From Haliotis rufescens (Eukaryota): a stretch of DNA of 64,000 nucleotides. Every line of letters starts with the position of its first letter. The stretch's first letter is position 1. The position numbers and the translations under genes are program-made. Under the pieces are notes generated by a model that saw only the letters and a list, made by a program, of their open reading frames with translations, had not been told where the DNA came from and did not search any database. The stretch is taken from assembly GCF_023055435.1 (NCBI RefSeq), contig NW_025964301.1:1550001-1614000 (forward strand), read 5' to 3'. Positions 1-18,267 of this stretch are shown here, piece after piece.

Positions 1-1168
1 CCTGGATTGTATGCGGTAGCGTTCATGGCGACAACAGAAGGACATTTGTGGTTGTATCCCCGAGGCTGATCCAGATAGGTGGGGGAAAATCCCGACCCCT
101 CCCCTTTAAAAATGCTGGATCCACCCTTGGAATACAGGAACTACATAAATAAAATAAGTACTTAAAATTTTAGGTAATACTGTCAGGAAATGAGATTCTG
201 AATGGTGGGATAATACTTTTCTGGGCACTACGACTATCACGTTACACCTGTGGAACGATTCTTCGAGCGATACGATGGTATCAGTAGGTTATACGTATCG
301 ATACAACACTAGTGCCAAATTCGCCGTATTATACGTCCTGCTCCAGTAAGTAAATCTGTCAATAATCTTTGTAAGCGCACCCTACTACGTATACTAAGAC
401 CGAAAAGGTAATAACAGTCTGTATTTCATGAGTATATTAGATATATTTACAGAACACGGAATCTTAGAAGTGCTATATAATTACCTGGTTTTGAACTTTT
501 ATAGAAACATTTTTAAGGTTTAATGACGTTTGAGCTAAGATTTTTTCAATGCCGCTCTATCCCTGAATATAAATTTAACTCGTTTTTATGGTTTTAATAA
601 GCGTCCCAGTTTGTCAAATTGTGGGCCAAGTGCTCTTATTAAGGCGAATACGACCAATATATGATGGACATGTCAAATGGTGTGAACATAAAGTATAAAA
701 TGTTATTTTCTGCTTGTAAGTAGAAGCGTCTCAAACGACGTTCTTAATTAATTGTCTCAAATTGACTGAGTATGTTTCAGTTGGTCTATAATTCATTTAA
801 TATTTCTTTAACATGTCAAGTGTCGAATTTACATGAATGGTGTTGTGTCACATATCGCGACTTTACAATTTGACTTTACACGCTAGGTGTCCTGAATAAA
901 TGTGTTGTTATCTGAGAGAGAAACAAATACACCTTCCGAAACAATAACCGAAACATTACCTTTGTCTCCAACAGTCCAAGGCTTCCATTACCGTCTACCT
1001 TGGGCCTAGGTGAGCTTATGAAAAATGAACAAAGTTTAATTTGAAAGATAAACAGATTTAATTAGCGCAAGCACAAAACCAGAAGAGCCAAATATATTGT
1101 CCAAAAAATGTCTAAAATGTAAAGAGCACTGTGATCTAAATAAGACAATGTCACAAGATGTCACTGAT

Positions 1169-2322
1169 TCAAGCGTCCATCTTGCGAGCACGGAACACAC
1201 TCCTGAAGAAGCCGGTCACACGAGATCTGATGGTTCTCACAGTGGACTGGGGCTGTGTGACTTCCTCGTGGAGGTCAATCTCTTCGAAGTGGGAGGCATC
1301 AGGGAGGGTGGGGCTGGTGAGGGACACGGAGGTGGACACGGGGGTAGGGGTGTGGGAGGCGGGCAGTTCAGACAGGGGGTCAAGGATGGTGAAGTATCGG
1401 CACGTAGCACGCTGATAGGAAGGTGGAGAAGAATTGATAGACAGAGATAGAAAGAGGTGGAAGTGTATGTTACAAGCAGCATTGGATGAGTGTTATGCTG
1501 TTAGAGAAATGTGAGAGGAAGACCCAATGAACAGAACTGCCTGTTGTCACTAGCTATCGATAGTACTTATTACCTACCATGGTGTCAAGAATACAAATCT
1601 CAGGCAAAAGTTGTGTTAAAAATACATGCACTTAGATGAAATAAAATAGTCAACAAACATGATGTTATTATTCCCGATTCAACCTACTTGGCGGGGAGGG
1701 GCCCAGATATCAAAGTTCAGGGGGAATCTGATGATCAGATCTACAGGTGCAACAGCAAAGAAGAAAGACATATAAAAAAGTTGTTTTTTTAAATATCCGA
1801 AATTTAGCTTTCAAAACATGCTGTAAATAACGCCGTGAGTGGTGATTTAGTAATGTGTAAAAAATGGCGACATTTACGATGTACCTAATTTTCAGAGGTC
1901 ATTTTCAGTACTTTTGCTTGGCCTCTGTGTGTGTGATGTATTTTGAATTTTATTCGACTTCAAAGTGGGGGTTGAAGAGGAGGGACATATATGTCCCTCT
2001 GGCATTCAGGGGGTTATTTGATCTTTTTTGTTTTCAAAATTTCGCTCGCGAATACTTCGCGGATGATCACTAGCAGTGCTATGCATGGGAACGTTCAATG
2101 CTTTCATTAAACAAAGTCTGAGAAAACCAAAACGGCAACAGCTCCAGCTAAAAAAACTACAAAACACAATCGAAATGTTTTTGAAACTAAACAAATCTGT
2201 TCGAGTTGGGCTACTATCCATTGATTAAAACAAAGAAATAAGGGTATAATGAGACGAAATGTCCGAATCAATGAGACCTAGATACCTTTATCGTACTGGT
2301 TCATATTAGCGTAGGTAGACAT
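1169..2322 (-). CDS. Orphan 110-aa protein, copy 1; exons 2322-2286, 1740-1688, 1411-1169
   Basis: ATG...AAAG|gtatct; ttctttgctgttgcacctgtag|ATCTG...CCAA|gtaggt; ttcttctccaccttcctatcag|CGTGCT...TGA. Phases 1 and 0 match; 37+53+243=333 nt. Protein MSTYANMNQYDKDLIIRFPLNFDIWAPPRQRATCRYFTILDPLSELPASHTPTPVSTSVSLTSPTLPDASHFEEIDLHEEVTQPQSTVRTIRSRVTGFFRSVFRARKMDA. ATTAAA lies ~107 nt past the stop (1062-1057). Confidence 0.78.
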
Positions 2323-3723
2323 GATCCCAATACAACGTAGACAAGTGATGAATACTGAGTGTGACAAGTTCAGTGACAGCAATGGCGATGACCGTTTAGA
2401 TCAAGAGTGAATCGTCGTCAAGGCAACGTCATGAATCTCGCGAGAAAGTAGTAGAATCTCGTAGCCGTCCAGATGAAACACTCTCAACCCTTTGAGCAGA
2501 TGGAGATATCAAACCTGACACATGTCGCATTTATGTACGAACACCAGCATTTATTACTCAAAATAAACTTTATACGACCCCCTTGTCAAAGGGGGGCTAC
2601 TCTAATCCTGTGAGATCGCCGAATGAAGTTACGCCCCCTCGATGTTTCGCAAATGTTGAAAGAGTTTCGACCCCTCCCCTTTAAAAATGCTGGATCCACC
2701 CTTGGAATACAGGAACTACATAAATAAAATTAGTACTTAAAATTTTAGGTAATACCCTCAGGAAATGAGATTCTGAATGGTAGGATAATACTTTTCTGGG
2801 CACTACGACTATCACGTTACACCTGTGGAACGATTCTTCGAGCGATACGATGGTATCAGTAGGTTATACGTATCGATACAACACTAGTGCCAAATTCGCC
2901 ATATTATACGTCCTGCTCCAGTTAGTAAATCTGTAAATAATCTTTGTAAGCGCACCCTACTAAGACCGAAAAGGTAATAACAGTCTGTATTTCATGAGTA
3001 TATTAGATATATTTACAGAACACGGAATCTTAGAAGGGCTATATAATTACTTGGTTTTAAACTATTATAGAAACATTTTTAAGGTTTAATGACGTTTGAG
3101 CTAAGATTTTTTCAATGCCGCTCTATCCCTGAATATAAATTTAACTCGTTTTTATGGTTTTAATAAGCGTCCCAGTTTGTCAAATTGCCGGCCAAGTGCT
3201 CTAATTAAGGCGAATACGGCCAATATATGGTTGACATGTCAAATGGTATGAACATAAAGTATAAAATGTTATTTTCTGCTTGTAAGTAGAAGCGTCTCAA
3301 ACGACGTTCTTAATTAATTGTCTCAAATCGACTGAGTATGTTTCAGTTGGTCTATAATTCATTTAATATTTCTTGTGTCGAATTTACATGTATGGTGTTG
3401 TGTCTTATATCGCGACTTTACAATTTGACTTTACACGCTAGGTGTCCTGAATCAATGTGTTGTTATCTGAGAGAGAAACAAATACACCTTCCGAAACAAT
3501 AACCGAAACATTACCTTTGTCTCCAACAGTCCGAGGCTTCCATTACCGTCTACCTTGGGCCTAGGTGAGCTTATGAAAAATGAACAAAGGTTAATTTGAT
3601 AGATAAACAGATTTAATTAGCGCAAGCACAAAACCAGAAGAGCCAAATATATTGTCCAAAAAATGTCTAAAATATAAAGAGCACTGTGATCTAAATAAGA
3701 CAATGTCACAAGATGTCACTGAT

Positions 3724-4936
3724 TCAAGCGTCCATCTTGCGAGCACGGAACACACTCCTGAAGAAGCCGGTCACACGAGATCTGATGGTTCTCACAGTGG
3801 ACTGGGGCTGTGTGACTTCCTCGTGGAGGTCAATCTCTTCGAAGTGGGAGGCATCAGGGAGGGTGGGGCTGGTGAGGGACACGGAGGTGGACACGGGGGT
3901 AGGGGTGTGGGAGGCGGGCAGTTCAGACAGGGGGTCAAGGATGGTGAAGTATCGGCACGTAGCACGCTGATAGGAAGGTGGAGAAGTATTTATAGACAGA
4001 GATAGAAAGTGGTGGACGTGTATATTACAAGCAGCATTGGATGAGTATTGTGCTGTTAGGGAAATGTGAGAGGAAGACACAATGAACAGAACTGCCTGGT
4101 GTCACTAGCTATCGATAGTACTTATTACGTATGTCAAGAATACAAATCTCAGGCAAACATTGTGTTAAAAATACATGCACTTAGATGAAATAAAATAGTC
4201 AACAAACATGATGTTATTATTCCCGATTCAACCTACTTGGCGGGGAGGGGCCCAGATTTCAAAGTTCAGGGGGAATCTGATGATCAGATCTACAGGTGCA
4301 ACAGCAAAGAAGAAAGACATATAAAAAAGTTATTTTTTAAATATCCGAAATTTAGCTTTCAAAACATGCTGTAAATAACGCCGTGAGTGGTGATTTAGTA
4401 ATGTGTAAAAAATGGCGACATTTACGATGTACCTATTTTCAGAGGTCATTCTCAGTACTTTTGGTGGCCTAAAATGCCAGTTAAAGGTATCACAGAAAAG
4501 GGAATTTCCTACATTATTCAAAACTGTGAAGTGTTTCTGTGTGTGTGTGATGTATTTTGAATTTTATTGGACTTCAAAGTGGGGGTTGAAGAGGAGGGAC
4601 ATATATGTCCCTCTGGCATCCAGGGGGTTATTTGATCTTTTTTGTTTTTAAAATTTCGCTCGCGAATACTTCGCGGATGATCACTAGCAGTTCTATGCAT
4701 GGGAACGTTCAATGCTTTCATGAAACAAAGTCTGAGAAAACCAAAACGGCAACATCGCCAGCTCAAAAAACTACAAAACACAATCGAAATGTTATTGAAA
4801 CTAAACAAATCTGTTCGAGTTGGGCTACTATGCATTGATTAAAACAAAGAAATAAGGGTGTATTGAGACGAAATGTCCGAACCAATGAGACCTAGATACC
4901 TTTATCGTACTGGTTCATATTAGCGTAGGTAGACAT
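3724..4936 (-). CDS. Orphan 110-aa protein, copy 2 (D23E); exons 4936-4900, 4289-4237, 3966-3724
   Basis: Same splice sites and exon lengths as copy 1; ORF intact. Confidence 0.78.
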
Positions 4937-6347
4937 GATCCCAATACAACGTAGACAAGTGATGAATACTGAGTGTGACAAGTTCAGTGACAGCAATGGC
5001 GATGACCGTTTAGATCAAGAGTGAATCGTCGTCAAGGCAACGTCATGAATCTCGCGAGAAAGTAGTAGAATCTCGTAGCCGTCCAGATGAAACCCTCTCA
5101 ACCCTCTGAGCAGATGGAGATATCAAACCTGACACATGTCGCATTTCTGTACGAACACCAGCATTTATTACTCAAAATAAACTTTATACGACCCCCTTGT
5201 CAAAGGGGGGCTACTCTAATCCTGTGAGATCGCCGAATGAAGTTACGCCCCCTCGATGTTTCGCAAATGTTGAAAGAGTTTCGACCCCTCCCCTTTAAAA
5301 ATGCTGGATCCACCCTTGGAATACAGGAACTACATAAATAAAATTAGTACTTAAAATTTTAGGTAATACTGTCAGGAAATGAGATTCTGAATGGTGGGAT
5401 AATACTTTTCTGGGCACTACGACTATCACGTTACACCTGTGGAACGATTCTTCGAGCGATACGATGGTATCAGTAGTTATACGTATCGATACAACACAAG
5501 TGCCAAATTCGCCGTATTATACGTCCTGCTCCAGTTAGTAAATCTGTAAATAATCTTTGTAAGCGCACCCTACTAAGACCGAAAAGGTAATAACAGTCTG
5601 TATTTCATGAGTATATTAGATATATTTACAGAACATGGAATCTTAGAAGGGCTATATAATTACTTGGTTTTGAACTATTATAGATACATTTTTAAGGTTT
5701 AATGACGTTTGAACTAAGATTTTTTCAAAGCCGCTCTATCCCTGAATATAAATTTAACTCGTTTTTATGGTTTTAATAAGCGTCCCACTTTGTCAAATTG
5801 CCGGCCAAGTGCTCTTATTAAGGCGAATACGGCCATTATATGGTGGACATGTCAAATGGTATGAACATAAAGTATAAAATGTTATTTTCTGCTTGTAAGT
5901 AGAAGCGTCTCAAACGACGTTCTTAATTAATTGTCTCAAATTGACTGAGTATGTTTCAGTTGGTCTATAATTCATTTAATATTTCTTTAACATGTCAAGT
6001 GTCGAATTTACATGTATGGTGTTGTGTCACATATCGCGACTTTACAATTTGACTTTACACGCTAGGTGTCCTGAATAAATGTGTTGTTATCTAAGAGAGA
6101 AACAAATACACCACCCGAAATAATAACCGAAACATTACCTTTGTCTCCAACAGTCCGAGGCTTCCATTACCGTCTACCTTGGGCCTAGGCGAGCTTATGA
6201 AAAATGAACAAAGGTTAATTTGATAGATAAACAGATTTAATTAGCGCAAGCACAAAACCAGAAGAGCCAAATATATTGTCCAAAAAATGTCTAAAATATA
6301 AAGAGCACTGTGATCTAAATAAGACAATGTCACAAGATGTCACTGAT

Positions 6348-9300
6348 TCAAGCGTCCATCTTGCGAGCACGGAACACACTCCTGAAGAAGCCGGTCACAC
6401 GAGATCTGATGGTTCTCCCAGTGGACTGGGGCTGTGTGACTTCCTCGTGGAGGTCAATCTCTTCGAAGTGGGAGGCATCAGGGAGGGTGGGGCTGGTGAG
6501 GGACACGGAGGTGGACACGGGGGTAGGGGTGTGGGAGGCGGGCAGTTCAGACAGGGGGTCAAGGATGGTGAAGTATCGGCACGTAGCACGCTGATAGGAA
6601 GGTGGAAAGTATTTATAGACAGAGATAGAAAGTGGTGGACGTGTATGTTACAAGCAGCATTGGATGAGTGTTATGCTGTTAGAGAAATGTGAGAGGAAGA
6701 CACAATGAACAGAACTGCCTGGTGTCACTAGCTATCGATAGTACTTATTACGTATGTCAAGAATACAAATCTCAGGCAAACATTGTGTTAAAAATACATG
6801 CACTTAGATGAAATAAAATAGTCAACAAACATGATGTTATTATTCCCGATTTAACCTACTTGGCGGGGAGGGGCCCAGATATCAAAGTTCAGGGGGAATC
6901 TGATGATCAGATCTACAGGTGCAACAGCAAAGAAGAAAGACATATAAAAAAGTTGTTTTTTTAAATATCCTAAATTTAGCTTTCAAAACATGCTGTAAAT
7001 AACGCCGTGAGTGGTGATTTAGTAATGTGTAAAAAATGGCGACATTTACGATTTACCTAATTTTCAGAGGTCATTTTTAGTACTTTTGCTTGGCCTAAAA
7101 TGCCAGTGAAAGGTATCACAGAATTCCTACATTATGTGTAGGATATGGTCCGAAAAGTCACGAATATTTTTGCACGTGGGGTCAGTTCGAGGCCGTCAGG
7201 CCGAGAACTTGCCCCACGTGCAAAAATAATCGTGACTTTGAGGACTATATCCTACTTAAAACAAAGTCCCATTCAAAATACATGTTAAACTAATGTCCAC
7301 CCAATATGCACGTGCATATATAATGGAGGGTCGTTCTTGTTTATGCTGAATCGATTGAAACTGCGCGCATGAACGCGCTAAAGTTCGAGCAAAACTATTG
7401 GAGGTCTCGTCTAATATGAGCGTGGAAAAGCACGTGCGATTTCTCATTTAGCTTTCAGTCTTTGTACGTGATGAACATTCATTACACGAGCTCGAACCAG
7501 GCAGCAATTAACTCAGATTTTGAAAGACTCATTTATGCTCATATTGAAATACTTGACGTGGCTGTACCAGATTTTGATGTGGGTAAAAGTGATATCTTGG
7601 AATCAGATGAGTTGTCTGGAAATGATACAGATTTGGTGGAACTCTCTCAACACGTAGAAGCAAGTATTCCCCAGGCCATACAAATTCCCGTTGCAACTCA
7701 TAACATTGATGACGCAGATAGTATTTGGAATTCCTAACCGTTTAGCAAGCCTGTGTCAGAGCAAGATCTTCAAAGTCTAAATTGTAATTCGGCTTTTTCT
7801 CAGAACACAGAAAACAAGAGTAGATAGGCCGTCGACGTCTTCCAAGCGCGGGTCAAGGAAAGACAATCCCATGGGTTACGTGATGACGTCGTGTTAAACC
7901 CCGACAGTATTGCTCTTTCGCATCGTGAAACAGATATTAATAAAAAATCTCATGCGTTTCTTGGTGGAAGTACGAAACCTAAACGGCGAAAAATATCGGG
8001 GAAATACGTTATATGAACTGATCGCGATCGCCTCATCGCAATACTATCGCCGAAGATATCCAGATTAACGTTAACGAGTCTCCTTATTTCAAGGGGATGA
8101 GAAACGTCTTGGATGCTCGAAAGAAGTCATTAGCTAAGCAGGGTATTGGCATTTAGAAAAGACAGGCAAATGTTGTTTCTGTCAGAAATCATGGTAGTTT
8201 TATAGTGTTAACACAAATACAGGACTGTTCCTGTATTTGGGGTTTAGTGCCCTTTTGGGATCTGCCGCCTCTGGTCCTGCTATCTCAACTTCGAAAACGT
8301 TGACATCCACTGCCTCTACATCGGCTGAGGCAACGTTGACAGCTACAGCGGTGACCTGTGAAGATCCGGGGTAGTATAGGTCTTCAGCAACCAATGCTTG
8401 CTGTACAAGGCGACTATGCTTGCTGTAAAAGGCGACTATGCTTGTCGTAAAAGGCGGCTAACGGGATCGAGTTGTCAGGATATCAATCACTGGATCGTCT
8501 GGTCTAGACTCGATTATTTTCAGACCGCCGTCATATAGCTGGAATATTGCTGAGTGCGGCGTAAAACAACAAACCAACCAACCAACCTACAGCGGTTCTG
8601 GATGAAACATCAACTCTCGCAGTAACTGAATCAACTACAGCCGAGAGTGCAGCACAAAAATCAATGAAACTCGTATTACCAGATTAGGCAACTTTGCCGT
8701 CGTCTTTCTGAAATAAATTTATTTCTAATTTGTCTCAGTTTCATTTGCCTCAGATGTCGGAAATCATGGTAGTTTTATAGTGTTAACACATATACAGGAC
8801 GCTTCTTGTTTTCGGAGTCAAGCGCCCTTTTTAAATACAGAATTTCAGTTATATCACGACGGCATATTACATTTCAGAAGAAAAGCCTGCAAAACCAGGT
8901 TATGTGTTGCAGGGTAACGTGCGAACGTCGACTGGTACATGCAAACCAATCGGGAGCGTAGTTCCTTAACTGATTGAGCGGGTGCGTTTCTACGTTTTGT
9001 CTATCAAAGATCACAAACACGGTTCGACTGACATGATTGGGTAATGGAGTTCAGAACTATTGGAGGTTGAACATTAGTTGATAACTATTGGAGGGTGAAC
9101 ATAAGTTGATAACTATCAGAGGGTGAACATTAGTTGTTAACTATTGGAGAGTTTATCTGCAATACACCGACTACTGGAGGATTACAGTATGAATGTGCAT
9201 GACCAAGTTCACACAAACATCCATGCGACTTTGTTTTAATCAAAACTATGAAGTGTTTCTGTGTGTGCGATGTATTTTGAATTTTATTCGACTTCAAAGT

Positions 9301-9656
9301 GGGGGTTGAAGAAGAGGGACATATATGTCCCTCTGGCATCCAGGGGGTTATTTGATTTTTTTTGTTTTCAAAATTTCGCTCGCGAATACTTCGCGGATGA
9401 TCACTAGCAGTTCTATGCATGGGAACGTTCAATGCTTTCATGAAACAAAGTCTGAGAAAACCAAAACGGCAACAGATCCAGCTCAAAAAACTACAAAACA
9501 CAATCGAAATGTTATTGAAACTAAACAAATCTGTTCGAATTGGGCTACTATGCATTGATTAAAACAAAGAAATAAGGGTGTAATGAGACGAAATGTCCGA
9601 ACCAATGAGACCTAGATACCTTTATCGTACTGGTTCATATTAGCGTAGGTAGACAT
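6348..9656 (-). CDS. Orphan 110-aa protein, copy 3 (V88G); exons 9656-9620, 6912-6860, 6590-6348; intron 1 enlarged by Crypton insertion
   Basis: Same splice sites and exon lengths; ORF intact. Confidence 0.74.
7136..9239 (+). mobile_element. Decayed, internally deleted Crypton-type (tyrosine-recombinase, DUF3504/ZMYM-QRICH1-like) DNA transposon
   Basis: Absent from other units (empty site cctacattat|tcaaaact) and has no TSD. Broken reading frame ~7470-8180 gives ...MRFLVEVRNLNGEKYRGNTLYELI...PYFKGMRNVLDARKKSLAKQGIGI*KRQANVVS, typical of the region N-terminal to the Crypton YR domain. A 118-nt terminal hairpin lies at 7138-7255. Confidence 0.8.
8353..8586 (+). mobile_element. SINE family B copy nested in the Crypton
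   Basis: gacctgtgaagatccgggg head, (AACC)n tail, 10-bp TSD ctacagcggt (8343-8352 / 8587-8596). Confidence 0.88.
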
Positions 9657-11052
9657 GATCCCAATACAACGTAGACAAGTGATGAATACTGAGTGTGACA
9701 AGTTCAGTGACAGCAATGGCGATGACCGTTTAGATCAAGAGTGAATCGTCGTCAAGGCGACGTCATGAATCTCGCGAGAAAGTAGTAGAATCTCGTAGCC
9801 GTCCAGATGAAACCCTCTCAACCCTCTGAGCAGATGGAGATATCAAACCTGACACATGTCGCATTTATGTACGAACACCAGCATTTATTACTCAAAATAA
9901 ACTTTATACGACCCCCTTGTCAAAGGGGGGCTACTCTAATCCTGTGAGATCGCCGAATGAAGTTACGCCCCCTCGATGTTTCGCAAATGTTGAAAGAGTT
10001 TCGACCTCTCTAAAAAATGCTGGATCCACCCTTGGAATACAGGAACTACATAAATAAAATTAGTACTTAAAATTTTAGGTAATACTGTCAGGAAATGAGA
10101 TTCTGAATGGTGGGATAATACTTTTCTGGGCACTACGACTATCACGTTACACCTGTGGAACGATTCTTCGAGCGATACGATGGTATCAGTAGTTATACGT
10201 ATCGATACAACACAAGTGCCAAATTCGCCATATTATACGTCCTGCTCCAGTTAGTAAATCTGTAAATAATCTTTGCAAGCGCACCCTACTAAGACCGAAA
10301 AGGTAATAACAGTCTGTATTTCATGAGTATATTAGATATATTTACAGAACACGGAATCTTAGAAGGGCTATATAATTATTTGGTTTTGAACTATTATAGA
10401 AACATTTTTAAGGTTTAATGACGTTTGAGCTAAGATTTTTTCAAAGCCGCTCTATCCCTGAATATAAATTTAACTCGTTTTTATGGTTTTAATAAGCGTC
10501 CCACTTTGTCAAATTGCGGGCCAAGTGCTCTTATTAAGGCGAATACGACCAATATATGATGGACATGTCAAATGGTGTGAACATAAAGTATAAAATGTTA
10601 TTTTCTGCTTGTAAGTAGAAGCGTCTCAAACGACGTTCTTAATTAATTGTCTCAAATCGACTGAGTATGTTTCAGTTGGTCTATAATTCATTTAATATTT
10701 CTTGTGTCGAATTTACATGTATGGTGTTGTGTCTTATATCGCGACTTTACAATTTGACTTAACACGCTAGGTGTCCTGAATCAATGTGTTGTTATCTGAG
10801 AGAGAAACAAATACACCTTCCGAAACAATAACCGAAACATTACCTTTGTCTCCAACAGTCCGAGGCTTCCATTACCGTCTACCTTGGGCCTAGGCGAGCT
10901 TATGAAAAATGAACAAAGGTTTAATTTGAAAGATAAACAGATTTAATTAGCGCTCAAACAAAACCAGAAGAGCCAAATATATTGTCCAAAAATGTCTAAA
11001 ATGTAAAGAGCACTGTGATCTAAATAAGACAATGTCACAAGATGTCACTGAT

Positions 11053-12264
11053 TCAAGCGTCCATCTTGCGAGCACGGAACACACCCCTGAAGAAGCCGGT
11101 CACACGAGATCTGATGGTTCTCACAGTGGACTGGGGCTGTGTGACTTCCTCGTGGAGGTCAATCTCTTCGAAGTGGGAGGCATCAGGGAGGGTGGGGCTG
11201 GTGAGGGACACGGAGGTGGACACGGGGGTAGGGGTGTGGGAGGCGGGCAGTTCAGACAGGGGGTCAAGGATGGTGAAGTATCGGCACGTAGCACGCTGAT
11301 AGGAAGGTGGAGAAGAATTTATAGACAGAGATAGAAAGAGGTGGACGTGTATGTTACAAGCAGCATTGGATGTGTGTTATGCTGTTAGAGAAATATGAGA
11401 GGAAGACACAATGAACAGAAGTGCCTGGTGGCACTAGCTATCGATAGTACTTATTACATATGTCAAGAATACAAATCTCAGGCAAAAGTTGTGTTAAAAA
11501 TACATGCACTTAGATGAAATAAAATAGTCAACAAACATGATGTTATTATTCCCGATTCAACCTACTTGGCGGGGAGGGGCCCAGATATCAAAGTTCAGGG
11601 GGAATCTGATGATCAGATCTACAGGTGCAACAGCAAAGAAGAAAGACATATAAAAAAGTTGGTTTTTTTAATATCCTAAATTTAGCTTTCAAAACATGCT
11701 GTAAATAACGCCGTGAGTGGTGATTTAGTAATGTGTAAAAAATGGCGACATTTACGATGTACCTAATTTTCAGGTCATTTTTAGTACTTTTGCTTGGCCT
11801 AAAATGCGAGTGAACGTTATCACAGAAAAGGGAATTTCCTACATTATTCAAAACTGTGAAGTGTTTCTGTGTGTGTGATGTATTTTGAATTTTATTCGAC
11901 TTCAAAGTTGGGGTTGAAGAGGAGGGACATATATGTCCCTCTGGCATCCAGGGGGTTATTTGATCTTTTTTGTTTTCAAAATTTCGCTCGCGAATACTTC
12001 GCGGATGATCACTAGCAATTCTATGCATGGGAACGTTCAATGCTTTCATGCAACAAAGTCTGAGAAAACCAAAACGGCAACATCGCCAGCTCAAAAAACT
12101 ACAAAACACAATCGAACTGTTATTGAAATTAAACATATCTGTTCGAGTTGGGCTCCTATGCATCGATTAAAACAAAGAAATAAGGGTGTAATGAGACGAA
12201 ATGTCCGAACCAATGAGACCTAGATACCTTTATCGTACTGGTTCATATTAGCGTAGGTAGACAT
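11053..12264 (-). CDS. Orphan 110-aa protein, copy 4 (S101G); exons 12264-12228, 11618-11566, 11295-11053
   Basis: Same splice sites and exon lengths; ORF intact. Confidence 0.78.
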
Positions 12265-12643
12265 GATCCCAATACAACGTAGACAAGTGATGAATACTGA
12301 GTGTGACAAGTTCAGTGACAGCAATGGCGATGACCGTTTAGATCAAGAGTGAATCGTCGTCAAGGCAACGTCATGAATCTCGCGAGAAAGTAGTAGAATC
12401 TCGTAGCCGTCCAGATGAAACACTCTCAACCCTCTGAGCAGATGGAGATATCAAACCTGACACATGTCGCATTTATGTACGAACACCAGCATTTATTACT
12501 CAAAATAAACTTTATACGACCCCCTTGTCAAAGGGGGGCTACTCTAATCCTGTGAGATCGCCAAATGGAGTTACGCCCCCTCGATGTTTTCGCAAATGTT
12601 GAAAGAGTTTCGTTGAAAGTCATTGAAATCGAATAGGTCTGTG
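12265..12643. promoter_or_regulatory. Probable bidirectional promoter between orphan copy 4 and tRNase Z
   Basis: 379 bp between divergent ATGs. Contains the palindrome TCTCGCGAGA (BANP/Kaiso-type promoter motif) at 12378-12387 next to a CRE half-site ACGTCA. The motif is repeated at 2436, 5050 and 9770. Confidence 0.65.
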
Positions 12644-15600
12644 ATGCAATCATGTTACAAGGGTTTGTTCATTTCAACCTCCCGAACGGTAAGGTTGTCA
12701 TGGTTTCCAGTGTGCCGGAGACACTTCATTAGAAGGAGAATGGATGACATTCAGAAATGGATCCAGTGTGGACGATACCGGGTTTTCGCCTGGTCCATAG
12801 CAGGCATGGAGACGAGCGTGGTGGTGAAATCCAACGATCTGGAGGTGGCCTTTGACATGGGTTACTCATCTAGAGAGAGCATCAGATGCAGAGATGTATT
12901 CATCAGGTAATCCGGTAGTCAACTTTAGAGCGTCAGTTACAGGGATGTATTCATCAGGTAGTCAACTTGAGAGCATCAGTTACAGGGATGTATTCATCAG
13001 GTAGTCAACTTGAGAGCATCAGGTGCAGAGATGTATTCATCAGGTAGTCAACTTGAGAGCATCAGGTGCAGAGATGTATTCATCAGGTAATCACCTTGGA
13101 AGTGACAGTTACAGGGATCTGTTAATCCGGTAGTCAAATTGAGAGCATCAGTTACAGGGATGTATTCATCAGGTACTCAAATTGAGAGTGTCAGTTACAG
13201 GGATGTATTCATCAGGTAGTCAACTTGAGAGCCAACTTCAGTTACAGGGATGTATTCATCAAGTAGTCAAATTGAGAGCATCAGTTACAGGGATGTATTA
13301 ATTCGGTAGTCAAATTGAGAGCATCAGTTACAGGGATGTATTCATCAGGTATTTAGCTTGTTGAGAGCTTCAGTTACAGGGATGTATTAATCCGGAAGTC
13401 AACTTGAGAGCATCAGTTTCAGGGATGTATTCATCAGGTAATTAGCTTGTTGAGAGCGTCAGTTTACAGGGATGTATTCATCCGGTAGTCAGCTTGAGAG
13501 CATCAGTTTCAGGGATGTATTCATCAGGTAATTAGCTTGTTGAGAGCGTCAGTTACAGGGATGTATTAATCCGGAAGTCAACTTGAGAGCATCAGTTTCA
13601 GGGATGTATTCATCAGGTAATTAGCTTGTTGAGAGCGTCAGTTTACAGGGATGTATTCATCCGGTAGTCAACTTGAGAGAGTTATTATTGGTAGTTTGCA
13701 AGTGACCATGTGAGTTTGATTTAATTGATTTCCGTACCATGGTAAAATAAAAATAAGGTGCCGTTTTTGCCAGGCAATAGTAGCTGTTTTCCCTTTTGGC
13801 AAGGAGACGTTTTCGCAAATCGGTGTCATTTTCACTTGGTGATGTTATGCTGAGATGCTGTATTAGCTGTAAGCCAGATATAATACCCTACACTAATGAG
13901 GATGTCATAACTGACCCGGGGATGTTTGTGTTCAGCCACGGCCACATGGACCACATCGCGGCATTGCCTCACCACGCCGCCAAGCGAAGTCTGTTCAGTC
14001 TTCCCCGCCCTAACTACTACGTCCCCGCACATCTCCCCGACCTCATCCAATCTGTTGCCCAGGGATACAAGAGTATAGATGAGACGACCACAGCACTGAC
14101 CAACATGAGCATTGTGCCGCTCGGTCCAGATGATGTCGCCAAGGTGAGAGTGTTCTACTGAAACCTATGGTTATATTACTTATATTTCTTTCCATATTAT
14201 AACTGTATGTCTACGTGTAACTGTTATATTTGAAATAACACTTTCTTAATAAAGTACAGATTCGTGTACTTTTTTGGCATGAGTCCCGTCCAGGATTCGA
14301 ACCCACACTGCCAGAGTGAGGCACCTAATCGCCAGCACACAAAGTCAGCGATCTAACCCACTCAGCCACCGAGGCTTCCACAAAAATGAAGTCTGACAAC
14401 TGGTAGTCTAGATAACATACTTTGTGTACCCCTCTGACAAGTGTAAATTGGCATAGCCAAAAGCTATGAACACACAATGCCATTTAGAAAGTGGTCAAAT
14501 GTAACAAATGTTATATTTGGGATAACACTTTCTTAGTAAAGTACAGATTCTCGTACTTTTCCTATATGTCTACATGTCTATATACTGGTGGGAAACAGTT
14601 CCTGTATGTCTACATGTCTATATACTAGTGGGATCAGTTCCTGTATGTCTACATGTCCATATACTGGTGGGAAACAGTTCCTGTATGTCTACATGTCTCT
14701 ATACTAGTGGGATCAGTTCCTGTGTGCCATCATAACTCAAAGTAAATTAAAATTACCATGGATTTTTCAGATTCATGCATGATAATCACATGTACAAACA
14801 CTTTGTTTTGATTACTATGATTACCCGGTGGTTGTCATGGTTATTGTGATTATCAAGAACCATGAATTAAGCCATGACATGACAAAGGCACGGTACAGAC
14901 ATCAGAAACTAGATTGATACCTGTCATAGATGCCAGAATTTGATCAGGAGCCATCTTTGTTTCTTTTTTATGTTAATCCTGATAATCACTTTATCAGTTA
15001 ATCCTAACCAGGGATTTACAAAAACTAGACCTGCTCAGAGGCCGATACTTTGCCACACATCTGCAGCAATTGTCAGTTGGGCTGGCTATCGATGCAGATC
15101 ATAGAGATCGATAACTGTTAACTAAATATCGATCAATTATTGATTAATATCAGAGAAGTAACTTTAAGCAAATATGCTAAAAAGTCTGAACGAAATCAAG
15201 ACACTTCATGCCACTGATAAGTGGTGACACATTTATGACATTTGTAGACAAAAATGGGGGGCACGGGTGGCCCAGTCGTCTAAGGCGCCGTGATTCGCTG
15301 TGCAGAGTTGTGTCCCTTGGGCATGCCAGAAACCTATGATTGTGGGTTTGTATCCCGGTTCGCCCCAATTATGTTTCTAGGTTTGTCAGCACCATACCCG
15401 TGCTCGTTGGTTTCACCGAAGTGGTCAACGTCTGAGACATGCAACACTTCGGGCTTTCCTCCCACATTAAGCTGACACGCCGTGATATAACTGGAATACT
15501 GTTAAAAGAGGCGTTAAACCCAACTCACTCACTCACTAAAACAAAAAGAGTTGCTTTCCATCTCTGTCAATTGACATGATTGACAATAACAAGTCTGTTT

Positions 15601-17809
15601 AGGTAAGTTTAAATTTTATTTCGTCACAATTGTTCTTGTAAGATATTATCAATGACACAATTTTCATATTGATTATCGTTGATATTTCTTCTCATGGACG
15701 ATACCGGTAATGCCAATTATCGATCTTTTTAGCCAGCCCTAATTCTCAGTAAAAAATTCCAGATGGGAATTAAAAAGTTTCCATTTCTTTTAGATTTAGT
15801 TGTAACAAATATGACGGTTTGGTCGGGGTGACTTGTAGTCCACTGGTAACAGGACCAAACACATGGCGGAGACTTAAATTGACATTATTGCATTGAATAC
15901 AATGTTGCAATGCAATGTTAAATTACCTCTGAAAATCAGAAAAACTGAATTTTCAAAGACTTTAAATTTTGAACAAAATAATACTTTTTCTCAATTTTCC
16001 TGCCAAGGGCTCTTAGTTTGGATAATCTATGCCCTACCATTTCCCCTACAGCTGCCTAAAGGGTACACTGTGAAGTCGTTCCCCACGGTCCACCGCATCC
16101 CTAGCCAGGGCTACATCGTGTACAAGACGAGCCAGCAGCTGAAGCCAGAGTTCCAGGACCAGCCCGGCACCGACCTGGGCGCCCTACACCGGAGTGGTGT
16201 CCAGATACACGACACCATTACCACACCAGAGATAGCCTACCTGGGTGAGACAGTTCACTTCTACTATGCTGCACAGTTGTGTCCCTTTGTTTGCCAGGAT
16301 CTGCTGATAGGGTTCGAATCCTATTTTGAGCCTTGGTCTGCACCAGTGTCGCTATCATTCCTCTGTGAACTGCCCCATTTTTGGGTACCACCCACATTAA
16401 TTGATTGTTTGTTGTTTAACACCGCACTCAACAATATTTCAGCTATATGATGGCGGTCTGTAAATAATCAATTTTGGACCAGACAAACCAGTGATTGACA
16501 CCATGAATATAGATCTATGCAACTGGGATACAATGAAACACATCAACCAAGTCAGCAAGCCTGACTACCCGATCCCTCGTAGGGCAAGCTTGGGTTGCTA
16601 AAGACCAATTCTAACCTGCACTGGTTCCACTTTAATTAAATGGTCCTTCATGATAGAACTGAAATACTGTTTCAGGTGAGGTGAAATGTGGTTTAACATC
16701 GCGTTCAAGGTTATTGTATTTACAGGGGTTTACCTTGAATTACAAAACTGTAAAATGTTTTTCTGCGTCCGTTCTATACATTTGTGTGTTGTGGAAAGCC
16801 CTGATTTATAAAGCAACATGCATGCATGTGTGTTTGTATGTGTGTATGTGTCTGCTTGTACTAGTCCGGACTAATACCACATGTGACAGTGAAGCTGTAG
16901 CGAGAATTAAGCTGTAAACATTTCAGTGTATAGTCTGGAAGGTAATTTAAGGTACCTACATTTACTACAATATTTGAAAAACTATTGGACCTACTCCAGT
17001 CAAAGTTGGTATGAGATTATTAAACAGTCATACATAACTGGATATTACATTTAAAGACAATCGGTGCATGAATAAAAAATCTCTATTTAGCTATCACTAT
17101 ATTTCATCAACAACCAGACCTGTTCGTCACGGGTGGAACGAGCATGCATTAAAACAGCCATCTACTTAATGCTACCCCTGCGTCACAGGGCCATATGACA
17201 CAGTTGAACCAATCAACTCAACTCGAAAGGGTGCACGGGAATCACGCACATTGAGACGCCCAACGCTAACACCGTATTCGTGCGTGCGTGATTCCCATGC
17301 AACCTTTGTATGACTGTTTTATAATCTCATACCAACTTTGACTGGAGTAGGTCCGATAGTTTTTCAGATATTGTAGTAAACGTCGGTACCTTAAATTACC
17401 TTCCAGACTTTAGCACCAATGTAAGCTAGTCGTGAGTGAGATTATCAGGATGCTCATTCAATCTTCTTGACTCATATTCTCTCTTTCAGGTGACACGACC
17501 TTCGAAGTGTTTCTTTCACCTCCAACCCCTGACCTGTTGAAGGTCAAGGTCATAATAACAGAGGCCACATACATTGAAGAGACGGCTGGCAAGGATTATG
17601 TTGAACAGGCTCGGAAACGGGGCCACACGCATTTGTCCGAAATTGTGTCCAACTCGCATTTATTTGATGAGGTGGATAGTGTTGTGATCATGCATTTGTC
17701 AGACAAATACTCCGTTGACTTTATCAAGGACAGGTGTACCGAAATGATTCCGCTGCCATTTAGGAGAAAAGTCAGAATTGCGACTCTAGCAAAGGAGAAG
17801 ACGTCATGA
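12644..17809 (+). CDS. Short-form tRNase Z, TM-type / plant TRZ1-like (metallo-beta-lactamase fold); exons 12644(or 12740)-12906, 13936-14143, 16052-16244, 17490-17809; 327 or 295 aa
   Basis: GT-AG introns with consistent phases (2,0,1). Motifs WSIAGMETS, AFDMG, FIS-HGHMDH, TVHRIPSQGY, QLKPEF, PEIAYLGDT, TEAT, GHTH, MHLSDKY occur in the order of Arabidopsis TRZ1. Confidence 0.93.
12875..13679 (+). repeat. 43-bp minisatellite (~18-19 copies) derived from the exon1/intron1 junction of tRNase Z
   Basis: Unit gagagcatcagttacagggatgtattcatcag|gtagtcaactt; the first copy is the coding end of exon 1. Confidence 0.93.
14222..14561 (-). repeat. tRNA-like segment (14375-14280) bracketed by ~53-bp direct repeats
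   Basis: Minus strand A box TGGCTGAGTGG and B box GGTTCGAATCC. tgttatatttg..ataacactttctta.taaagtacagattc..gtactttt occurs at ~14222 and ~14509. Confidence 0.6.
14562..14722. repeat. 39-40-bp minisatellite, ~4 copies
   Basis: ctgtatgtctacatgtctatatactggtgggaaacagttc repeated. Confidence 0.9.
15256..15537 (+). mobile_element. SINE family A (tRNA-derived head, (ACTC)n tail), inside a probable hAT-like MITE (~15078-15740)
   Basis: A box TGGCCCAGTCG, B-box-like GGTTTGTATCC; near-identical copies elsewhere in the window. Confidence 0.9.
16931..17410. mobile_element. MITE with ~105-bp terminal inverted repeats (TAGTCTGG... ends) in tRNase Z intron 3
   Basis: tagtctggaaggtaatttaaggtacc... / ...ggtaccttaaattaccttccagact. 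Confidence 0.85.
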
Positions 17810-17865
17810 TGATATTTTTGAATATTGAGTCGTTTCCTACAACTGCCATTGTGTCATTGTCATCA

Positions 17866-18267
17866 CAGAGCTGCGTATTTGCATAAATACGCATTAAATA
17901 CACTGACATACACAGACAAATCAAATCCTATCATATCAAATATGCAAAAAAAACTATAAATAAGCTATTGAAATAAAATTAATGCGTATATTACAACTGT
18001 TAGATAAAACATTTGCGTATATTACAACTGTTAGATAAAATAATTGTGTATCAGGCGATCGCCAAATTCACTTACCGACAGTTACATTCGGAAAAGCAGA
18101 CAGGTATATAGTTATTAAATGATTTACAGAGATTGTTACGCAACAGGTTTTCAACTTAAAATACCAAGATGTCAAGAACCAGGTGGGTAAAAAAAAATTG
18201 AATACCCAATCCAAATCAAACTCCTGGGTAAAATACACAAATAACCAAAAAATTATCTATAGCTCTG
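17866..18267. mobile_element. CAGAGCT-ended MITE in the tRNase Z 3' region, related to 50209-51146
   Basis: cagagct...agctctg ends; internal similarity (gcgtatt, aatacccaat, gggtaaaatac) to the 50.2-kb element. Confidence 0.65.

Follow-up and report, generated by a model that had tools for sequence, protein, structure and literature searches.

An intron-containing plant-type RNase Z gene in the abalone Haliotis rufescens with a predicted mitochondrial presequence and predicted second start codon

The 64,000-nucleotide stretch of abalone (Haliotis rufescens) DNA analyzed here, hereafter called the window (contig NW_025964301.1, positions 1,550,001 to 1,614,000 of the forward strand), carries on its plus strand a four-exon gene for a plant-type short tRNase Z (RNase Z). 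In window coordinates, the coding exons lie at 12644-12906, 13936-14143, 16052-16244, and 17490-17809, and the spliced frame comprises 327 codons with no internal stop. Exon 1 begins with the first ATG and an N-terminal extension of 32 codons (12644-12739), predicted from its composition to be a mitochondrial presequence. These are followed by a second in-frame ATG (Met33, 12740-12742), the predicted start of a cytosolic isoform, and by the sequence SIAGMET and the motif I aspartate. Exon 2 holds the HxHxDH metal-binding motif (13937-13954) and the helices predicted, by folding two copies together, to form a dimer interface. Exon 3 encodes the motif III histidine (16091-16093) and a short flexible arm of the Thermotoga type (TM-type) with a variant KL motif (16136-16192), and exon 4 encodes Asp223, TEAT (the xExT motif, 17558-17569), HTH (the HxH motif, 17624-17632), His290, and the stop codon. 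The 3′ untranslated region (17810-17982) includes candidate polyadenylation hexamers at 17893 and 17972. The three introns (12907-13935, 14144-16051, and 16245-17489) are all bounded by GT and AG and interrupt the frame in phases 2, 0, and 1, respectively.

No sequencing run used in this work is recorded as RNA, and the RNA status of the runs is a guess. We take them as transcripts because their contigs skip the introns precisely, and the case for expression rests on these spliced joints. In the four runs examined, which come from three studies, one 1,076-nucleotide contig of run X2 consists of exactly exons 1 to 4 in order, while exons 2 to 4 are joined in run X9 and exons 3 and 4 in run X1. 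The joint between exons 1 and 2, at which 1,029 nucleotides are skipped, is also present in three of four further runs. Contigs begin upstream of the first ATG, at 12588-12617, and end at 17959 and 17982. Contig depth, a poor gauge of expression, is low at about 3 to 8. The gene is single-copy in the assembly, given that each of its four genome-wide matches is one of its own exons. A previous examination of this DNA from its letters alone (the sequence-only reading) had proposed an intron-containing TM-type tRNase Z gene at this place, and the joining of all three introns in contigs bears this out. The lack of expression that it considered fatal to the proposal was not seen.

The translated protein displays RNase Z motifs I to V in full (D71, H89-H94, H171, D223, and H290). 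Its SIAGMET begins at residue 51, HGHMDH spans residues 89-94, LKPEF begins at 187, TEAT spans 245-248, and HTH spans 267-269. All 50 aligned relatives keep the residues H89, H91, D93, H94, H171, D223, E246, H267, H269, and H290 unchanged, so the metal-binding residues are indeed intact, as had been claimed. A motif search of the 327-residue translation found no PxKxRN, HEAT, or HST, and the translation lacks a C-terminal AxDx. These features agree with the view that the protein bears TM-type rather than ELAC signatures. In the available text of Fan et al. (2011, PMC3161902), plant TM-type tRNase ZS enzymes are distinguished by a short arm without the GP motif, the motif KLKxxYxxLxGxxIxxLK, xExT and HxH, and the absence of PxKxRN. 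The abalone arm, measured from GY to GD, spans 45 residues as in plants, and its KL motif is a variant in which L, K, G, and L are exact and F and L are conservative. EGxSxxG, which the same text describes as a plant signature that allows variants, precedes motif I; at the aligned position the abalone protein retains SxxG alone.

Wherever a full-length sequence was needed, the 327-residue orthologue from Haliotis asinina (P0001) served as a stand-in; it is 90% identical over exon 4 and 92-93% identical over the tree columns. The solved structure nearest to it in sequence is that of rice RNase ZS1 (7XGT; E 1.3e-50, 35% identity). The AlphaFold model of this orthologue has a predicted local distance difference test (pLDDT) score of 93.9, and a fold of a tardigrade orthologue scores 91.9. 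The H. asinina model adopts the RNase Z fold with a flexible arm and superimposes on 7XGT with Z 36.5 and a root-mean-square deviation of 2.1 over 275 aligned residues, in agreement with Foldseek. Other values are 23.9 for Escherichia coli ZipD, 23.8 for Thermotoga maritima tRNase Z, 21.2 for human ELAC1, and 19.4 for Apyc1, and the top four matches are all RNase Z. Of the original “plant/Thermotoga-type” label, the plant half fits better than the Thermotoga half, to which the likeness is weak. The T. maritima enzyme (1WW1, 2E7Y; TIGR02650) shares a short arm without a GP motif and the lack of PxKxRN, but it is only 17% identical (E 0.045), and the strict Thermotoga-type profile TIGR02650 gives 13 bits against a cut-off of 507.05. 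“Plant-type,” after plant TRZ1/TMS5, is the better name, and membership of the plant-type short RNase Z family is close to certain.

Profile searches are far less telling. A Pfam scan of single exons returned nothing useful, and the whole orthologue matches only Lactamase_B_2, below the cut-off, and reaches 46 of 293 bits with TIGR02651. Such weak scores may explain why surveys have overlooked this gene. When two copies of the protein were folded together, the homodimer score was 0.83 (best control, 0.00), contacts agreed to at least 94%, and pLDDT was at least 90, values that could reflect memory of solved dimers. Among solved pairs, 21 of 30 microbial and 17 of 29 eukaryotic ones attained the mark used; of the monomers, none of 23 and none of 30 did. 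Because RNase ZS dimers have already been solved, we read the score as likeness to the dimers of the family and not as binding.

Elsewhere in the abalone genome lies a separate ELAC1-type gene (C334) with PTPSRG, GIPPGP, HEAT, HST, and a C-terminal AxDx, and a further locus (C13) carries ELAC2-like exons. Because these loci are separate, the gene in the window adds a third RNase Z to ELAC1 and ELAC2, as the sequence-only reading had suggested. ELAC1, the animal RNase ZS, is likewise a short form with the same metal ligands and possibly overlapping tRNA-repair chemistry. However, its PxPxRG, GP arm, HEAT, HST, and AxDx features, all found at the C334 locus, are absent from the third protein. 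ELAC2 (RNase ZL) is a long tandem form of 700-800 residues, compared to 327 here.

Orthologues were found in seven phyla, namely Mollusca, Annelida, Nemertea, Brachiopoda, Platyhelminthes, Tardigrada (Paramacrobiotus and Ramazzottius), and Hemichordata (Glandiceps). These results derive from the best 120 of 269, 120 of 302, and 150 of 1,918 matches, plus 30 further rows that were looked up. At least 25 animals fall within the first 38 of 120 matches listed, with plants next at about 38% identity. Further relatives occur in oomycetes, ochrophytes, a red alga, green plants, Planctomycetota, Bdellovibrionota, and viral contigs. The matches listed include no named chordate, echinoderm, arthropod, nematode, cnidarian, sponge, or fungus. 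Database entries already bear automatic names, as had been anticipated: the Aplysia, Lingula, and Schistosoma proteins are called “tRNase Z TRZ1,” and that of Octopus “TRZ2, chloroplastic.” Outside eukaryotes, the plant-type protein ranks first among RNase Z matches in all five Planctomycetota, Bdellovibrionota, and Aegiribacteria genomes tested (G001-G005: L046, L061, L093, L048, and L102), none of which has a canonical Rnz above the cut-off. In addition, 17 IMG/VR viral contigs (L005-L021), including giant-virus metagenome-assembled genomes and contigs longer than 400 kb, encode relatives of the subfamily.

Phylogenetic analysis unites the animal sequences. Our main tree (IQ-TREE, LG+C20) has 67 rows, obtained by removing three long-branch rows from a 70-row tree. 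The trees contain no Thermotoga or ELAC2 row and a single ELAC1 row assembled from exon pieces. In the 67-row tree, the abalone protein, 21 named animals, and one further row form a clade with support of 99/98, whereas ELAC1 pairs with E. coli RBN (100/100) on a long branch. A constraint placing the animals with ELAC1, the grouping held to be fatal to the original proposal, is rejected in the 70-row set by the approximately unbiased (AU) test (p-AU 6.75e-5). A protostome clade that excludes the hemichordate is not rejected (p-AU 0.56), and vertical descent from a bilaterian ancestor is therefore compatible with the data. The gene is at least as old as the protostome ancestor and probably as old as the bilaterian ancestor, with many later losses.

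How the gene reached this ancestor is a matter of finer balance. An old horizontal transfer from a stramenopile-like eukaryote, a large virus, or a bacterium into a stem bilaterian or stem protostome, as opposed to retention since the last eukaryotic ancestor, has in our estimate slightly less than an even chance. It would account for the lack of a named sponge, cnidarian, choanoflagellate, or fungal sequence among the matches listed and for the relatives in Planctomycetota, Bdellovibrionota, and viral contigs, but the absence from nonbilaterians rests on the best 120-150 matches listed. The oomycetes are the nearest group (85 in the 70-row tree and 86/73 in the 67-row tree), but this sisterhood is unsupported and dissolves in another tree. 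An ancient eukaryotic presence followed by losses would also fit the occurrence of the family in green plants, a red alga, ochrophytes, and oomycetes. Because the oomycete sisterhood reaches only 86/73, and because the AU test does not reject a constraint that joins animals with green plants (p-AU 0.155), no donor, plants included, can be singled out.

Regarding function, we lean, by a modest margin over even chances, toward a plant-type third paralog that acts as a two-zinc homodimer on tRNA 3′ ends, with mitochondrial and cytosolic forms predicted. By analogy with the family, His89, His91, His94, His171, and His290 together with Asp93 and Asp223 would hold two metal ions, the short flexible arm would clamp the tRNA elbow, and Glu246 and His267 would pass a proton as the homodimer cuts or hydrolyzes at the tRNA’s 3′ end. 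Because PxKxRN is lacking, a CCA end is probably ignored as a block, and plant and Thermotoga relatives are described as not blocked by CCA in the available text of PMC3161902. From the anatomy of exon 1, a product whose mitochondrial presequence is cleavable would start at the weak first AUG, and a cytosolic one would arise when scanning ribosomes leak past it to Met33. The least certain element is the niche, which may be trimming or repair of tRNA 3′ ends bearing trailers, partial CCA, or 2′,3′-cyclic phosphates, such that CCA can be added again, as with TMS5; in the accessible part of PMC11897441, rice TMS5 strips 2′,3′-cyclic phosphate from CCA-less tRNAs, which allows CCA to be restored. 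The mitochondrial tRNA pool would be a role that ELAC1 does not cover. We consider tRNA likely to be a main substrate, but we would give somewhat less than even weight to the idea that repair, and not primary trailer removal, is the task.

The N-terminal extension, an addition beyond the sequence-only reading, was compared across orthologues. Abalone codons 1-32 encode a basic segment without a single Asp or Glu, with Met33 next. The first ATG has a weak context (G at -3, C at +4), and that of Met33 is strong (A at -3, G at +4). Setting aside four of the 55 animal rows (two without a start methionine, one aberrant, and one near-duplicate) leaves 51 orthologues, of which 26 have a long extension. 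By chance, an upstream in-frame ATG at least 26 codons away occurs at 364 of 4,946 positions. All 26 long forms are basic and acid-poor at the N terminus, a profile shared by 59 of 232 core windows and by 51% of the 837 random ATG frames taken from abalone. None of 20,000 resamples reached the means of the long forms for Asp plus Glu (0.81 vs. 1.82 in random frames) and net charge (+3.8 vs. +1.0). In 22 of the 26 long forms, an internal methionine occurs between 13 and 45 residues ahead of the SxxG serine, where 12.0 would be expected; narrowing the window to 13-28 residues leaves 16 such forms (6.9 expected). Among the taxa with this pattern are molluscs, Owenia, Lineus, Lingula, and Ramazzottius. 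A basic, acid-poor N terminus is a mark of mitochondrial import, and on these sequence grounds we consider it fairly probable that a mitochondrial isoform is made. An out-of-frame upstream open reading frame at 12652-12732 begins 8 bases past the first ATG and ends 7 bases before Met33, and it could tune the choice of start codon.

This arrangement has partial precedents. The available text of Wang et al. (2012, PMC3433465) describes the same two-AUG design for metazoan ELAC2, in which the first of two in-frame AUGs has a weak context and the N terminus carries a targeting sequence, a feature that is predicted in abalone. Plant TRZ2 (RNase ZS2), a chloroplast enzyme, belongs to the same subfamily and likewise carries an organelle-targeting extension, according to the accessible part of PMC3161902. 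However, plants use two genes for cytosol and plastid, whereas the abalone has one gene with two AUGs and products predicted for cytosol and mitochondrion, and the three TRZ2 transit peptides compared are less basic than its extension. Rice RNase ZS1/TMS5 and plant TRZ1 share with the abalone enzyme the short form, a TM-type arm of equal length, xExT and HxH, and the lack of PxKxRN. Unlike them, the abalone enzyme has an animal host, a conserved W-S-x-x-G in place of EGxSxxG, and the predicted presequence with its second start; in addition, it coexists with ELAC1 and sits in a separate clade.

Several observations weigh against the reading that we favor. As annotated, the other 25 of the 51 orthologues lack the extension and begin close to where the second methionine lies, and this methionine is itself missing in 4 of 26 long forms (three Octopus-like rows and Ylistrum). 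Because the composition thresholds and methionine windows were chosen with the data already in view, and because the rows share ancestry and are mostly molluscan, the p-values for the extension are optimistic. In related abalone contigs the extension shows 10 substituted sites with no listed indel or stop, and the fact that five are synonymous is only suggestive. Only one deuterostome (Glandiceps) was found, and in the 67-row tree it pairs with Lingula (99/88). The arm spans only 20-21 residues from GY to GD in all eight fluke and tapeworm rows, compared to 45-48 residues, the length in plant TRZ1/2, in 47 of 55 animal rows including the abalone. Because about 25 arm residues have been lost in these parasites, tRNA may not be the sole substrate. 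Finally, cytosolic repair and mitochondrial trailer removal are already covered in mammals by ELAC1 and ELAC2, so the niche for a third enzyme is not obvious. The rows with the arm deletion and intact catalytic motifs come from trematodes and cestodes (P0135, P0137, P0309, P0310, P0312, P0318, P0344, and P0365), and P0154 also shows it; free-living Macrostomum retains the arm.

If the extension were unused or nontargeting, the enzyme might be cytosolic only, performing TMS5-like repair of tRNAs cut during ribosome quality control in overlap with ELAC1. The nearest characterized relative, rice TMS5, is cytosolic, and both the stronger context of the second ATG and the annotation of half of the orthologues from the second methionine would fit. 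However, the recurrence of the extension greatly exceeds chance, its composition is more basic and poorer in acidic residues than that of random frames, and the same genome holds an ELAC1 with all its motifs; we regard this alternative as unlikely. We judge it equally improbable that the active site serves something other than tRNA, such as structured mRNAs, mitochondrial junctions that lack tRNA punctuation, or small cyclic nucleotides. Plant relatives are reported to cut mRNAs, with rice ZS1 acting on UbL40 and ZS2 on ndh transcripts in the available text of PMC13477058, and the neodermatan arm deletions with retained catalytic residues point the same way. Many matches also carry a precomputed PF23023 Anti-Pycsar_Apyc1 label, but the model gives Z 19.4 with Apyc1, compared to 36.5 with RNase ZS1. 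Moreover, most animal rows keep an arm of plant length, and in the five bacterial genomes the relative is the best RNase Z match, with no canonical enzyme above the cut-off.

Low contig depth is the one observation in favor of a diverged ELAC1 copy, a pseudogene, or algal or plant contamination, and to these explanations we assign almost no weight. The AU test rejects the ELAC1 grouping, the frame is intact with spliced joints in several studies, a 327-residue orthologue lies on a 106-Mb H. asinina contig, and the introns hold high-copy host repeats.

These repeats, and others nearby, deserve a brief description. Intron 1 opens with a minisatellite (12910-13679; 43-bp unit, 17.5 copies) that copies the end of exon 1 together with its GT donor, creating 10 additional donor-like copies; contigs nonetheless splice at the first donor. 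In intron 2, ARAGORN calls a tRNA-Thr(TGT) on the minus strand (14281-14375). Because contig depth there is very high, the call probably marks a repeat derived from a tRNA. Interspersed repeats of very high copy number, sharply bounded, lie at 15257-15537 in intron 2 and 16405-16576 in intron 3, and intron 3 also carries an inverted repeat (16929-17412; 106 bp, 94% complementary, 272 bp apart) that resembles a miniature inverted-repeat transposable element. Upstream of the gene, at about 1000-11400, a multikilobase unit occurs four times, with near-identical open frames at 1052, 3607, 6231, and 10951.

In the available text of Wang et al. (2012, PMC3433465), a survey of 81 metazoans recognized only ELAC1-like and ELAC2-like genes and named the TM-type as a contrast alone. 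Plant-type orthologues are unreported in the main text, as far as it was available, although its Table S1 could list one. That text describes Capitella and all ecdysozoans as having no short form; Capitella and two tardigrades carry the plant-type gene. The survey’s short form from Schistosoma shares 35% identity with human ELAC1 and is therefore probably a different gene from the plant-type one. No paper on an animal TM-type enzyme was found in the literature searched, which comprised titles and openings of abstracts and left subscription journals mostly uncovered. We consider the animal genes to be a real, overlooked branch of a known subfamily, with a new targeting arrangement predicted.

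Animals are generally held to possess ELAC1 and ELAC2 alone; a plant-type enzyme in seven phyla, including such animals as Aplysia and Schistosoma, departs from that picture. We speculate, with confidence clearly short of even, that many invertebrates possess an unrecognized third RNase Z that stem bilaterians acquired or retained and that vertebrates, insects, and nematodes lost. Imported into mitochondria when translated from an upstream AUG, it would provide CCA-blind processing or repair of tRNA 3′ ends that is missing from the human-based model of mitochondrial RNA maturation, and flukes and tapeworms would have shed the tRNA clamp and switched substrate. The role of an armless RNase Z in parasitic flatworms, whose vertebrate hosts gave no match among those listed, thereby becomes a testable question, as do the finishing and repair of mitochondrial tRNA ends in invertebrates and whether a short RNase Z can be mitochondrial.

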